Source: Salinispira sp.
GTDB lineage: Bacteria; Spirochaetota; Spirochaetia; DSM-27196; Salinispiraceae
DNA length: 64,000 nucleotides
NCBI GenBank assembly: GCA_965602015.1
Contig: OZ271918.1
Location: 3,360,001-3,424,000, forward strand
Reading direction: 5' to 3'
Numbering within the stretch: the stretch's first letter is position 1; each line of letters starts with the position of its first letter. Positions 21,001 through 30,000 of the stretch are shown here, piece after piece. A program made the position numbers.

Positions 21001-24000
21001 CCGAGCCTATGCCGAGGTGATGCTGACCGTCGCAGAGGCAGTGGCGCCTCTGGCCACCGAGAGTTTCCGAAACCATCTGCTCGGGGGTGTGAGATTCACC
21101 GCTCGCGAGCTGGAAGCAATACGGGCGACGCTTGCTGTGTCCGCCGATGGCCGGCATGACGGAAATGATCCGGTGGAAGCCCTTCCTGCAGCTTTAAGGG
21201 AAACACTCGATGAGTTGAAATTTACCGGACGTGACAAAGAACGTTTGGCCATCAAGCTTTTAGACGGCCGTCAGACCTAAAACCCGGAAAAACTAGCCGG
21301 TGAGAGAGATAAATATTATGGAAGACAATAGCTTGCAAAAACGACTTGCCGTGCTGATCGACGCGGATAATGCCCGGCCCTCGATAATCGAGGCTGTGCT
21401 GGAGGAAGTTGCCAACTACGGCATCGCCAGCGTAAAACGCATCTACGGGGACTGGACGAGCCCCAATCTTCGCTCCTGGAAGGAGCTGGTGCTCGAATAC
21501 TCAATTCAGCCCCATCAACAGTTCGCGTACACCACGGGCAAAAACGCCACCGATTCGGCGCTGATAATCGATGCCATGGATCTGCTGTATTCCGGAAGTC
21601 TGGAGGGATTCTGCATCGTGAGCTCGGACAGCGATTTTACCCGGCTCTCATCCCGGCTCAGGGAATCCGGAATGACGGTTTACGGTTTCGGGGAGAAAAA
21701 GACGCCGGAGGCCTTCGTCGTCGCCTGCGACAGGTTTATCTATACGGAAAACCTGCGCAGCACCAAAACCGTCACCGAGGAACAGGATATCCCCCGTATG
21801 TCCTCAAACCAGATGAAGCAGGACTCCCGGCTTATCAATTCAATCCGCAAAGCAATCGAGGACAGCGAGGATGATGAAGGCTGGGCGAACCTGGGTACCG
21901 TCGGCCAGATAATCATGAATGCCTGGCCCCAGTTCGACCCGCGGAATTACGGTTACTCCAAGCTGGGAGAGCTTGTACGGAAAATCGACCTTTTCGAAAT
22001 CGACGCCCGCAAGAGCCCCAGCAACTCCGGCCGTTCGCTGTATATACGGGACCGGCGGAAACACGGCCGCTGAACCCGGAGGATGGGGCGGGAGCCTGAA
22101 AAGACCAATGGATAAGCCCAGGTTCTGGCAACAATTTAAATCAGTCATCGCCTTCGTTAAGCCGGCAGACCTGGCGGTTGTCGTTGTGTACCTGTCGCTT
22201 TTTGGGGTTTTCCTTGCCTTGTCGCTGCAAAACGTCGGCGCCGCCGGGTCAATCGTCATTCAAAGCTCGGGGGAAGAGTACCGCTACAGCTTTGATGAAG
22301 ACCGGACCCTGGAGTTCCTCGGTCCCGTAGGAAGCACCTCGGTGGAAATCGATGATGCCGGACGGGCCCGGTTTACCCATTCCGATTGCAGAGATCAAAT
22401 TTGCGTTAACGCCGGATGGCTGGAACGGGGCGGCGAATGGGCCGCCTGCCTGCCGAACCGGGTAATTCTCCGGCTCGACAGGGCTGCTGAAGCTGAAGAG
22501 GGCATAGAAGCGGAAATCGATGCCACTGCCTTTTGAAGGGCTATAGGCCAGTGCAGCAGCTATGCCGCCGCGTGCGCCGCCGCACTACCTGAGGTCCTCA
22601 GGCTCCCCCATTTCGTATTCCTGGTCCAGCAGGACAAAGGATTCCAGGAGACCGTCGCTGGGATACACTTTGCGGTCGGCGGTAATAAACACCGCCTCGA
22701 TGTAATCAAGCTCGTTCGCCAGCTCCAGGCCTTCCCGCAGTCCCAGACCGAACAGGGCCGTGGAGTAACCGTCCGCGGTCATGCTGACATCGGAAACGAT
22801 CACCACCCCTTCCAGACCGTTGTTCACCGGAAAGCCGTCGTCGGGATTTAACAGATGATGATATCTGACGCCGTCTTCCTCAAAATACCGCTCATAAATG
22901 CCGGAAGTGACGATGGAAAGGTCTTCAGCCGGAAGGGTGCCGAGGTAGGATCCGCGAACCATGTCCGGCCGCTGAACGCCGATTATCCAGGGCCGTTCTT
23001 CTGAGCGCCGGCCGATGGTGAGAATGTTGCCTCCGAAGTCCAGAATGGCCTTTTTGACACCCTGTTCCTTGAGGTAGTCCGAAACCAGATCGGCAGCGTA
23101 GCCCTTGGCTATTCCCCCCAGATCAACACCGGCTCCCGGCTGAGTAATAAAGGCCCGGTCGGGCTGCCCGTCCCGTCCGTCCGCAGGGTAGAGTTCGAGA
23201 AAGTCGCCGCGAATAAGGGGCAGGGTATTTCGCATCTCTGTTTCAGAAGGAATTCGGGGGTTTTCTCCGCCGATATCCCACAGGGCGACCAGGGGTTCAA
23301 TCATCGGGGTGAAGCGGTTCCGGCTGTTCTCCGCGATTTCGACTGATGCCTGCAGAACCTCCATGGTCATTGGGTCCACGTTCACCGGGGACATGCCCGC
23401 CGCCTCATTCAGGCTCACCAGTTCGCTGTCCTGAAGCTGAAGGCTCATGAGCCGATACACCCTGTCGACGATTTCGAATGACTCTTCGAAAAAGCGGGGC
23501 TTGGGATCGTCGTAAATCGTGATGGTGACAATGGTTCCCAGGCTCTGAACAGATCGTCTGACGGGCTCCGTCTCACTATTTTGCGCGCAGGATGTCAATA
23601 ATGTGAACACAATCACAACAATAGGGATAATTTTATCTATAAAAAACGTCTTTGCACATAGCGCGTTTTTAAATCGCATGATAGACTCGGTCATAGTAAA
23701 AACTTATACCAATCTAAACCACGTAACACAAGCTGAGCAGGAGGCTTCTGTGAGCGATACGACAAAAATCGTCGTCCTTGGCGGTGGTTACGGCGGAGTA
23801 CACGCCGTAAAAACCCTGTACAAGGCATTTAAAAAAGATAAGTCGGTTGAGATAACCCTCATCGACAGGAATCCGTACCATACCCTGATGACCGAACTAC
23901 ATGAAATTGCCGGTCACAGAACCGAGCCTGAAGCTGTTCAGGTCAGCTTCAAGCGGATATTCGGCGGCAAGCGGATCAACGTAATCAGCGATGAAGTTCA

Positions 24001-27000: not shown

Positions 27001-30000
27001 TCTTTCCCTGGTTTCCCAACTGCTGCTTCACCGAAGGTATTAGTTGTGAAGTGCCCCCAAAACAGCTGATTTCCTCCCCTCAGGCCACCGCATAATCGGG
27101 CAGATCGATCTTCAGCGCACTCACCGGTGTCTTCCAGATCCGGTGCCAGGTCTTCCATTGGCTGATGTCCAACACCAGATGATGAACGAAGGCCCGCTGT
27201 GTAAACATCCTTTTTGCCAACGTGAGTACCCGCCTTCGGTCAAACCCGGCAACCTCACCATGGCTGATATCGTTTCGTCCGTTTATCCGATACGGCTTGA
27301 GCAGGTTATGATAGGCGATGTAAATCATCATCCGCTCCATGCTGTTGTTCACCGATTTTGACCACTGGACACTCTGGCGGACATGACAGGATTGATCCTT
27401 TCGTATCTCCCGATCCAGGTAATTCACCGGAAACAGCGGGTTCTCAGTGGTCCTGACTACCCTCGATGAGGTTCGGTGATGGATAACCCGCCCTGCATTT
27501 TCCAACTCCGCCCAGTCCCGATGAGCGCACAGCTCACGGCGGTATTCGAGTTTTTCATCGCTCAAGAGATAGCATGGCTTCTTCGATGAATAGGCCTTCC
27601 ACCGGGGAAGAATGGTGTTTATCACATCCTGGAAAGATCGCGCAATTTGTCCCCCTGCAATAGGATACCGGCGATTGAGCTCATCGCGCCGGCGCTTTTG
27701 TGCGGGGGTCATCCGCCCTTTGCGCCGCATCTGCGCATAGTCGCACGCATAGACAACCTGGCTGTCGGAACCTACCGCGAGAGTGAAGTTGTTCGGCCAG
27801 TATTGGCTGTACACAAAGCTTTCAAACCCATCAACGGCAATATCCTCATCGATTGTATGATCGCTCAATAACTGGGCCATGGCAGCGATCGCCTGACGGG
27901 ACAGGCGGCTCAGCCGATTGAGAATGACCTTGTCAGTGACATAAAATTCCCGGGCAATGTCGCGGATGCCGGAGGCCGAGTTGATCGAAGAGAAGATGCG
28001 CCGGTAATCGAGGCGATGATGTGTGCGATAATCGAGGTGAAACGCGCTTTCGCAGAAGTATCGACGGCAATGCTTACAGCGATAGCGCTGTGAAGAACCG
28101 AGGCGGCGGCAGTGATAGTGGCCGTTTCGGACAAACCAGCATCGGCTTGATTCTCTGTCGCGATGATGCTGAGAACAGTCCGAGTACGGACAGAAACGAG
28201 GGATTAATGCCATGGTAATCTCCTATGAGCGGGAATCGTGTCATAGAAGACTACTGGCAAAAGAGTTATGTTGATTCGATCAGCTGTTTTGGGGACACTT
28301 TCATCACATACCTAGATCGGGATACTCGTAGAGGGGAATAAAACCCCTAACCAGATGGCTGGCGAGCCATGCGTCCGGTTTTATGTGCCGGTGGGATCTC
28401 ATGCGCATCGGGCTGTTGACCAGTTCGCCCGCATCGTTTGTGTATTCATCGGGCTTGAACAGATTCATTTTTTCGAGCACCACACCACGGACGTAATTGT
28501 AATGGAGGTAGGTGATCTGGCCGTTCTCGCTCACCGATACTACAATGCCGGCGTGGGTGAAGGGATCGCCCCATTTACCGTCGCCGTCCTTGTCATAGGT
28601 GTCGTCCCAGATGATGACGTCGCCGGGACTCGGGAGGGCATCGAAATAGTTCAGCTCATAAGCTTCGCCCATGTCGTTGAGCCGTTTGACCCCGTTGCCG
28701 CTGTATAGGTGGAAGTATTTTACCGGGTTAAGACCGGCGCCCCAGTAGGCCGCCAAAACGGTGCCGGTGCAGTCCGCCGGGAACTCCTGCCCGTTTACCA
28801 CCAGGCGCTCGGTCTCAGTGAGGCTGATACCCGACTCGACGATCATCCTCTGTATTTCCGTCGGATACACATAGCCGTCGATAATTTCGAGGGTCCGGTC
28901 ACCCCTTTGAACTGATTTGCCGTTGAGCTCGGGCAGAGCCTGGGGCTTAACGGCGGGCTTGTAGGGCCGGGAGTCCGGGAAAGCGGTCTCCAGGCTTGCG
29001 CAGGATGAGAGAAAAACTGCCAGGCTAATGAGCAGGGCAGCAAGCCGTATATTTTTACGCCGAAGGGACGGCGAGGGGTTCTCCTTGACCATTTAGACCT
29101 CCCTGGGTAATTTTTTACATAATCTGGAGTACACATGAAAGAAAATTCTATTTTGCGAAAGCAGTTTCCCTTCGCCTACTACAATATAACACTATATATA
29201 ATTATCGCGAATCTTCTCGTATTTCTTATCGTTAATGTAATAAATGGGCCGGTCATTCGTCTGCGGGACGGTAACCTCGGGCTTACCTCTGCGTTAAGCA
29301 TGGTTCCCCTTCTGGTGAACCGGGGGTTTGTATGGCAGTTTTTTACCTATATGTTTGTGCATGCGGGTACGAATCACCTTATTTTTAACATGCTGGGACT
29401 CTTTATCTTCGGTTCCCAGGTGGAACGGGAGATGGGCAGCTGGGAGTTTCTCATGTTCTATCTGATTACCGGAGCCCTTGCTGGCGTTCTATCCTATGCA
29501 ATCTACCTTGCAGGCGGAGCCCTGGCGGTTCATCTACTCGGAGCCAGCGGGGCCTTATACGCAGTTATGCTCGCCTTTGCAACCTATTTTCCCAATGCCA
29601 GAATTTTTGTCATGGGAATACTTCCGGTGCGCTCGGTAACCCTCATTCTGGTGTACGCCGGCATTGCGGTGTTTTCCCAGTTTACCGGATCCCAGTCGGG
29701 AGTCGCCCATATGACACATCTTGGGGGATTCATTTTTGCCTTCCTGTATTACCTGATCCGCTTTAATCACAACCCGGTCAACAGTTGGCGGAATCGATAA
29801 CCAGATGAAAATATTAGAGTTCCCCGGGGCGGCCTCGGGCAACCGGGGTCACCGCTCGGTAACTCTCATCCTTACTTCGATGCTCATTCTGGAACTCACC
29901 CCTGTCATGGGACGGCTCATGGCTTCCCTCGGCAGCTTGTCCGGCGGAAGCGGCAGCCTTTCCGTCCTGCTGGTAAACGTCGCCCTGGCCGGGGGCAACG

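Follow-up and report, generated by a model that had tools for sequence, protein, structure and literature searches.

An Ndh2-family NADH dehydrogenase of a spirochaete with three candidate ApbE flavinylation motifs in a predicted periplasmic loop

The Listeria locus for flavin-based electron export (FLEET) comprises ndh2, pplA, fmnB, eetA, eetB, fmnA, dmkA and dmkB. According to the literature consulted, Firmicutes orthologues of the dehydrogenase described here are required for ferric and anode reduction, EetB exports FAD for FmnB, and the substrates named for FmnB are PplA and FrdA, Ndh2 being absent from them. E. faecalis needs EetB and Ndh3, not PplA (PMC9864754), and the flavin-dependent iron reduction of L. 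plantarum requires Ndh2 and EetA/B, with PplA dispensable and neither DmkA nor DmkB required. PMC9864754 states that the route by which electrons exit the reduced quinone is not known. A statement that Ndh2 or Ndh3 is an ApbE substrate, or is flavinylated, was not encountered in the literature found, a coverage that lies outside subscription journals.

The locus described here lies in a window of 64,000 nucleotides of a Salinispira genome (GCA_965602015.1, contig OZ271918.1, 3,360,001 to 3,424,000), within which its features are placed as follows.

22108..22536, + strand: NusG_II/EetA-like gene (PF07009, E 9e-22; BLASTP to Listeria EetA, E 5e-10)
22585..23694, - strand: ApbE/FmnB flavin transferase gene (PF02424, E 6e-78; 36% to Listeria FmnB)
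23750..25849, + strand: Ndh2/Ndh3-family NADH dehydrogenase, 699 aa (NDH-2 plus four-helix DoxX-type membrane domain)
23750..25060, + strand: NDH-2 catalytic domain (motifs GGGYGG and GAGFTG; fold match with C. thermarum NDH-2 in Foldseek; conservation)
24569..24679, + strand: Cys/His insert of about 35 aa with conserved Cys, His, Cys (alignment)
25115..25186, + strand: membrane helix 1, aa 456-479 (predicted structure, conservation; R463, G467, W470, E473 conserved)
25187..25534, + strand: putative periplasmic loop, aa 480-595 (topology prediction; disordered at aa 507-550)
25271..25291, + strand: motif 1, DAASAAS, aa 508-514 (candidate FMN site S514; copy at the family-conserved position)
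25325..25345, + strand: motif 2, DTAAAAS, aa 526-532 (candidate S532)
25367..25387, + strand: motif 3, DAAAAAT, aa 540-546 (candidate T546)
25535..25711, + strand: helices 2-4 of the DoxX-type membrane bundle (none with a conserved His)
25862..27043, + strand: DmkB/HepT-like polyprenyl diphosphate synthase gene (PF00348, E 1e-48)

Domain searches and motif positions confirm both the genes and the trio of motifs in the loop that the genome-wide survey's note had reported. Its gene set stands as well; the orientation had to be corrected, since ndh2 and apbE point away from each other while apbE and the EetA-like gene converge. The ndh2 reading frame has a GTG start preceded by AGGAGG and ends 12 bases before the polyprenyl synthase gene, which adjoins ndh2 in all 33 loci examined (25 of 26 in the earlier count); apbE is linked to ndh2 in 13 of the 33. 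As the note had said, the EetB-family gene and the DmkA-like gene (E 3e-33 to Enterococcus DmkA) are sited elsewhere in the genome; the EetA-like and EetB-family genes are not neighbours. A neighbourhood search for related loci returned only 2, and promoter and terminator scans at the locus gave results no better than chance level.

Full-length homology makes the 699-aa protein a member of the Ndh2/Ndh3 family, in which an NDH-2 domain is joined to a DoxX-type membrane domain at the C-terminus, and it is 39% identical over its full length to Listeria Ndh2, which has the same layout. The spirochaete gene set is an ordinary relative of the Listeria one: fmnB diverges from ndh2 with eetA and dmkB nearby, and the genome supplies an FmnB/ApbE with intact catalytic residues, DmkB and DmkA, and EetA and EetB. 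The EetA-like product is membrane-anchored and keeps the CxxxxC of its NusG domain II. Unlike in Listeria and Enterococcus, eetB and dmkA are dispersed and the loop motif is of an AA type present in three copies. No PplA orthologue emerged; an FMN_bind search of the genome gave only two RnfG-type genes. The EetB protein has an additional membrane domain, for which BLASTP gave no match to FmnA. Two other lipoproteins of the genome carry canonical motifs, one with a weak FMN_bind match (E 0.042), the other without a BLAST match to PplA. Meheust 2021 defines an EET system by a flavinylation-associated gene cluster that includes an NADH dehydrogenase having a transmembrane helix, and the locus fits this definition. 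Both the NDH-2/DoxX fusion and its occurrence in spirochaetes, the latter as the note had suspected, are already in print, spirochaete members being listed in a published data set.

The catalytic domain matches C. thermarum NDH-2 closely in Foldseek (E 3e-38, TM 0.92-0.94 by target) and contains QIVETAIQ, which we take to mark the position of the quinone-site motif. Its Cys/His insert occurs in 72 of 103 aligned rows, 52 of them with C-x-H-x-C, and is lacking in Listeria and Enterococcus Ndh2. The membrane domain is harder to place. Its DoxX Pfam match falls below the cut-off (18.1 against 23.6 bits), all Atlas matches were below 0.9, and no solved relative was found by sequence search or Foldseek; the best fold match, TMEM35A/NACHO, has a Z of 9.5 (rmsd 4.1, 118 aligned), in the range that helical bundles can reach through arrangement alone. 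Among shorter proteins, 19 matches, mostly from short contigs or named partial, gave no clear case of a stand-alone membrane domain. We rejected a haem protein, as no His column exceeds 30% in helices 456-479 or 596-654; the conserved intramembrane His pairs of flavinylation-associated b-type cytochromes (MsrQ, PepSY, DUF4405) are absent, and the bundle yielded no flavin or quinone pocket.

The loop after helix 1 is acidic, with pLDDT below 50 at aa 507-550 of the predicted structure, and its K+R content of 0.03 per residue compares with 0.18 and 0.20 in the flanking segments, from which it is predicted to be extracytoplasmic, accessible and periplasm-facing. Here bare seven-residue motifs recur every 14-24 residues, and this is the only one of 10,977 ORFs of the genome with at least two broad motifs, in agreement with the note. 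None of the three copies matches the strict motif D-x-x-[ST]-G-A-[ST]: motif 1 departs from it once, and motifs 2 and 3 depart twice because Ala also stands at the [ST] position. The motifs are likely attachment sites for covalent flavin, and they appear to fall within the tolerance seen at established ApbE sites. The genome's RnfG2 site reads DSVTAAT, and solved RnfD sites read DTVTTAT and DGVTTAT, aligned to NqrB DGYSGAT, so G is not obligatory; solved RnfG sites read [AT]GAT or TGST, and the site of the genome's other RnfG, RnfG1, reads TGAT. The apbE of the locus is the only one found in the genome (1 match), and its product, judged by sequence, must also serve the TAAT site of RnfG2. That protein has a lipoprotein-type N-terminus and the FmnB catalytic residues S264, R269, H280 and D308, invariant in 14 of 14 aligned. 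Mutagenesis summarised in PMC12052999 left about 50% flavinylation on changing G to A and found a minor effect of D to A, a seven-residue tag being enough; tags inserted in loops are reported to be flavinylated more poorly than terminal ones. The site may easily have been missed, since it falls in a tryptic peptide of 60 aa in Listeria and 71 aa here.

Among 120 close homologues, D..[STA][AG]A[ST] occurs 223 times (225 in the earlier count) in the loops of 103, the latter figure unchanged; only 9 of the 223 have G, and Ala occupies two positions in 61, among them copies 2 and 3 of the present protein. Its AA form was found 214 times in 101 of the 120 loops, where shuffles averaged 3.0 (maximum 9 in 300 shuffles), and never in 50,797 residues of the homologues' NDH domains, so that the reported enrichment stands; off-register and reversed controls were near chance. 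Among 46 representatives clustered at 50%, 33 strict motifs fell in 22 loops (shuffle 0.5), and 7 of the 46 lacked any core; 10 further representatives had only a short loop. The canonical motif claimed for some homologues is indeed there, as 8 strict D-x-x-[ST]-G-A-[ST] motifs in 6 of the 120 loops, and 5 of the 120 lack even the broad motif. Copy number varies from 1 to 7 in spirochaetes, as described earlier, and both deep branches of the Ndh2 family carry the motif.

The note had read the built-in motif as a diderm or spirochaete speciality standing in for the FMN carrier. The FLEET-type module, the ApbE-like motifs and their variable number hold; the speciality does not, because Gram-positive Ndh2 carries the core in the same loop. 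Listeria Ndh2 and Enterococcus Ndh3 align there with a canonical [ST]GA[ST] core, found in 99 of 120 Listeria-centred homologue loops at a fixed place (shuffle 2.6), and one clostridial homologue has an AA-type tandem. In the Listeria-centred set [ST][GAS]A[ST] is present in all 120, with G, A and S alternating at one position (102/13/5), and the strict motif in 19. We thus rejected spirochaete specificity, and likewise a role as PplA replacement, since the loop motif persists in 8 of the 10 spirochaete loci that have a neighbour resembling PplA, in one of them as seven copies.

Other described proteins resemble this arrangement in part. NqrB and RnfD are membrane proteins that are flavinylated in an outer loop, and their D-x-x-[ST]-x-A-T site tolerates change at the G position; they differ in having an unrelated fold and a single site and in belonging to an ion-pumping complex. 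Soluble flavoproteins bearing the motif once or twice, in an unstructured extension or an inserted loop, were demonstrated to undergo flavinylation; unlike Ndh2, they have folds of the soluble flavoprotein type, whose flavin pocket is known. The multi-flavinylated FMN_bind proteins of Meheust 2021 (PMC8238504) also vary in site number, each site lying in a folded domain, in contrast to the bare motifs of a disordered loop here.

We consider it fairly probable that this is a dispersed FLEET-type export module in which ApbE acts on the NADH dehydrogenase too, with loop FMN carrying electrons from quinol to periplasmic partners. Flavinylation of the family's loop site is quite probable and that of motif 1 here reasonably so, and flavinylation of more than one copy in this protein is suggested only tentatively. 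It is unlikely, though the strongest of the rival accounts, that flavinylation is confined to the one canonical site in Gram-positive Ndh2 (or is absent altogether) and that the spirochaete AA repeats are a degenerate acidic spacer expanded by slippage. The scarcity of G, the low-complexity, disordered loop, the motif-less members and a frequently shifting copy number (12 changes of the label of at least three copies among 60 rows of the tree, at least 9 forced) would all suit a spacer. However, of 218 cores, 185 have D in the exact register, where the background is 5.6%, local 12-aa shuffles give 3.4, and a natural TAAT site exists in RnfG2; moreover, the DNA of the motif copies does not form clean tandem repeats in this genome, so the peptide pattern has been kept while codons diverged.

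Rather improbable is a flavinylated loop that feeds the cell's own periplasmic partners (RnfG/NqrC-type subunits, flavinylated lipoproteins) or detoxifies O2, with nothing exported past the outer membrane; the acceptor is the sole difference from the favoured reading. The two Rnf/Nqr-type clusters and the canonical-motif lipoproteins offer such partners, no cytochrome bd match was found in the genome, and medium that contains oxygen is reduced by the named relative, which has no terminal oxidase, but the requirement for the Firmicutes orthologues in ferric and anode reduction speaks for export. O-glycosylation of low-complexity linkers is the pattern of PglL systems, and an Ala/Ser-rich, disordered and predicted extracytoplasmic loop could attract that or another modification; this is very improbable given the canonical core at the homologous position in Bacilli, the fixed spacing of D and the linkage of apbE. 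Equally remote is a route from Ndh2 and quinone to a cytoplasm-facing acceptor such as SdhAB, with apbE and eetA nearby only for Rnf. The genome does hold sdhA/sdhB-like genes, ApbE is widespread among genomes of the class (339 of 401) and EetB clusters with Rnf in many genomes, yet no membrane-anchor ORF was seen beside sdhAB and the conserved loop motif would be left unexplained.

The membrane domain occurs in 159 of 401 class genomes, a recount of the 37 of 121 given before that upholds its presence in the class. ApbE accompanies it in 155 of the 159 against 184 of the 242 without it, kin among them not being independent. One genome and its relatives have a motif-less Ndh2 despite ApbE, and in one genome (94% complete) with a SAAT loop two queries found no ApbE. 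The few G copies, the double-Ala copies, the motif-less homologues, this SAAT-loop genome, the poorer flavinylation reported for loop-inserted tags and a DoxX bundle in which no flavin or quinone pocket emerged are points against the favoured reading.

If the dehydrogenase is indeed an ApbE substrate, DmkA and DmkB would make demethylmenaquinone from DHNA, taken as scavenged because no head-group pathway was found (no MenB above cut-off and no MqnA family match, as the note had it), and NDH-2 would oxidise NADH and reduce this quinone. The EetB-type protein would export FAD, and ApbE would attach FMN to S514, with S532 and T546 as less certain sites. The tethered FMN may dock against the DoxX bundle at its periplasmic side and take quinol electrons, the next recipients being flavinylated lipoproteins, free flavins, Fe(III) or O2. 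Additional copies may bring more flavins or reach, and the purpose may be NAD+ regeneration in a fermenter. We give these four steps together about an even chance. A strict quinol step fits poorly, since L. plantarum runs its flavin route without need for DmkA or DmkB. For the nearest named species, the type strain is reported to lack respiratory lipoquinones, a point against the favoured reading.

More broadly, it may be, with the balance no better than level, that the Ndh2 family of Bacilli, Clostridia and spirochaetes comprises unrecognised ApbE substrates, single-chain transmembrane wires (NADH, FAD, quinone, tethered FMN) whose loop FMN links the quinol pool to PplA or external acceptors, the spirochaete loop having become a disordered tether that holds several flavins on its 1-7 bare motifs. 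Ndh2 as a second ApbE substrate fits the genetics of E. faecalis and L. plantarum because PplA is dispensable there, under some conditions, while Ndh3 or Ndh2 is needed, and a flavin on its outer loop would fill the quinol-exit gap noted in PMC9864754. Were the loop unflavinylated, the protein would be an ordinary, already catalogued FLEET relative. If it is flavinylated, the spirochaete form would represent multi-flavinylation that dispenses with folded FMN-binding domains, genome scans would have to use a wider ApbE motif, and about 40% of the sampled Spirochaetia genomes would gain a candidate periplasmic electron outlet.

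The 699-aa protein is an Ndh2 family member within a dispersed FLEET-type module. Over its full length it aligns with Listeria Ndh2 and Enterococcus Ndh3 at 39% identity each, and both have the same Pfam layout. The features of the region are as follows.

Genes of the ndh2 region (window positions)
22108-22536, + strand: EetA-like NusG_II gene
22585-23694, - strand: apbE
23750-25849, + strand: NDH-2/DoxX fusion, 699 aa
25862-27043, + strand: polyprenyl synthase
27080-28213, - strand: IS1-like transposase, 377 aa (by a match under the cut-off), immediately following the prenyl synthase

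Loop motifs of the 699-aa protein
aa 508-514: first motif
aa 526-532: second motif
aa 540-546: third motif

The AlphaFold model (mean pLDDT 90.6) predicts an NDH-2 fold, then a helix at 456-479 and further helices at 596-654, with a loop between them that is disordered at 507-550. Lys and Arg are scarce in the loop (0.03 per residue vs 0.18 in the part preceding helix 1 and 0.20 in the tail), which fits the positive-inside rule for a periplasmic loop. The isolated membrane-domain model best matched TMEM35A/NACHO (Z 9.5), a DoxX-family protein. The membrane helices contain no conserved His. Spirochaete-type members also carry, in the NDH domain, a conserved Cys/His/Cys insert with an acidic run (window 24569-24679), which is absent from Bacilli and is possibly a metal or disulfide site.

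The genome-wide survey's note had described the locus as a diderm version of the Listeria flavin/quinone electron-export module. Meheust 2021 defines the EET system by the presence, close to apbE, of an NADH dehydrogenase that has a membrane helix (PMC8238504). Data Set S1 of PMC9973259 classes Pyr_redox_2 + DoxX proteins as EET, with one Spirochaetia genome among its first 15 such rows, and spirochaete members of the gene module are named in PMC7074142. The fusion, as well as its spread to spirochaetes, is therefore known. The portions of the literature searched, including PMC11334425, PMC8238504, PMC12052999, PMC9094743 and bioRxiv 2023.01.13.524026, contain no claim of Ndh2 flavinylation. 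What was not found in print is that the outer loop holds a conserved candidate site for flavinylation, expanded to 1-7 copies.

Among the best 120 of 2710 homologues (E <= 0.001), the pattern D..[STA][AG]A[ST] occurs 223 times, in the loops of 103; G is present in 9 of these motifs, and Ala occupies both variable positions in 61. The enrichment first noticed with D..[STA]AA[ST] was upheld: 101/120 loops gave 214 matches, where shuffling gave 3.0 on average, and 50,797 NDH-domain residues gave none. In this set the stricter D..[ST][GAS]A[ST] gave 185 matches vs 1.8 after shuffling and 3.4 after local 12-residue shuffles, and moving the D one place either way left 1 and 2. As the note had also held, the 699-aa protein alone has at least two broad motifs among the genome's 10,977 ORFs. 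On a tree of 60 of the 120 close homologues, the state of at least three copies changed 12 times.

Judged by sequence, the loop motif appears common to the whole Ndh2 family. Among the best 120 of 233 relatives of the Listeria membrane domain, [ST]GA[ST] was found in 99 loops (shuffle 2.6) and [ST][GAS]A[ST] in 120/120, at a fixed place behind a W-L-Q anchor; the upstream position is D in only 26 and T in 62, and the candidate site in Listeria Ndh2 is S493. Clustering at 50% listed 150 representatives, 57 with both loop flanks; leaving out 10 with loops <25 residues and one doubtful match gave 46 (one frameshifted-looking sequence retained). The broad motif occurs in 36 of these, and 7 lack any core. 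In a midpoint-rooted FastTree built from 73 NDH-domain rows, motif-bearing members fall in both deep branches and motif-less ones are scattered. One spirochaete genus has two Ndh2 paralogues, one loop-deleted and one with a motif-less loop; both paralogues of another genome (G500) bear the motif, and the Ndh2 of G310 (locus L071; 94% complete) has an SAAT loop.

One ApbE, with the FmnB catalytic residues, was found in the window's genome. The G subunits of its two Rnf/Nqr-type clusters (L003 and L004) carry DAITGAT and DSVTAAT, and the D subunits DAVSTVT and DAVSSST: four different candidate FMN-site variants for a single ApbE. In alignments with solved complexes, DSVTAAT falls at the RnfG site, which in two of them has no D, and solved RnfD has TTAT where NqrB has SGAT. 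The Thr at these sites of the solved proteins carry FMN. Two lipoproteins elsewhere in the genome also have canonical motifs. A 255-aa protein of no Pfam family (L006:6685-7452, - strand) with a C-terminal canonical DAVTGAT is a candidate ApbE substrate; its gene lies downstream of lysine fermentation-like genes, and in the Atlas it comes closest to the cluster of a spirochaete lipoprotein family (0.95). A 194-aa protein (L005:5171-5755, - strand) has DAYTGAT, a weak FMN_bind match and a CTC motif, and adjoins a two-domain rhodanese-like lipoprotein, so labelled from inspection. According to a review (PMC12052999), G to A in the motif leaves about 50% flavinylation and D to A has a minor effect; Thr is preferred over Ser, and yields are lower in loops.

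The membrane domain is present in 159/401 class genomes (120/306 good-quality ones) and 13/301 genomes of the phylum-wide set. ApbE was found in 155/159 genomes with the domain vs 184/242 without; one of the remaining four has a fragment, and a second query found nothing in three. We compared 33 loci (all 12 phylum-wide relatives, one related locus and 20 class loci picked by hand with a preference for short proteins and long contigs), some of which stop at contig ends: a DmkB-like gene neighbours ndh2 in 33/33, bearing out the prenyl synthase association proposed earlier, ApbE in 13/33, a PplA-like gene in 10/33, EetA and a DmkA-like gene in 8/33 each and EetB in 7/33. The broad motif occurs in 26/33, with at least two copies in 16/33. 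The FMN carrier had been proposed to be built into the dehydrogenase as a variable-copy repeat. We reject replacement of PplA by the loop, since 8/10 loci with a PplA-like neighbour retain the loop motif and, in L084, the seven-copy protein is encoded beside a PplA-like one that bears two canonical sites; the loop thus adds to PplA.

The EetB-like and DmkA-like genes of the window's genome do lie outside the ndh2 region, as reported. The former (L040:691-2097, - strand; 468 aa) fuses the EetB-family domain to an extra membrane domain and gave no BLASTP match to Listeria FmnA; a 481-aa protein of this type is labelled EetB in Data Set S1 of PMC9973259. In line with the note, which had no men or mqn pathway annotated, this genome (99.7% complete) yielded no MenB over cut-off and no MqnA, nor cytochrome bd. 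An sdhA/sdhB-like pair (L105:1486-4039) adjoins TCA-cycle genes, and no membrane-anchor ORF was seen adjacent to it.

From the anatomy, conservation and neighbourhood observed for the ndh2 gene, we infer an electron route. NADH would reduce the FAD of NDH-2, which would pass electrons to demethylmenaquinone made from scavenged DHNA; the quinone would then reduce FMN attached to the loop by ApbE, and this FMN might serve periplasmic lipoproteins, flavins, Fe(III) or O2. Several observations count against such a scheme. Motif copies 2 and 3 each deviate twice from the pattern. The G372 group has motif-less homologues although its genomes have ApbE, and ApbE was not found in G310 or in a second genome of the same family. 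A named relative, whose Ndh2 is 87% identical to the 699-aa protein, is reported to be without lipoquinones (PMC4511686). Published genetics of Gram-positive systems bear on both sides. DmkA and DmkB are dispensable for riboflavin-dependent iron reduction in L. plantarum (PMC9888254), a result that speaks against a strict quinol step. Ndh2 and EetA/B are required for that reduction and PplA is not (PMC9888254); E. faecalis requires EetB and Ndh3, again with PplA dispensable (PMC9864754), and EetB exports the FAD for FmnB (PMC9973259). These last results leave room for a second flavinylated substrate. On balance, we somewhat favor, as the best explanation of these sequence patterns, a FLEET-type module whose NADH dehydrogenase may itself be a substrate of ApbE.
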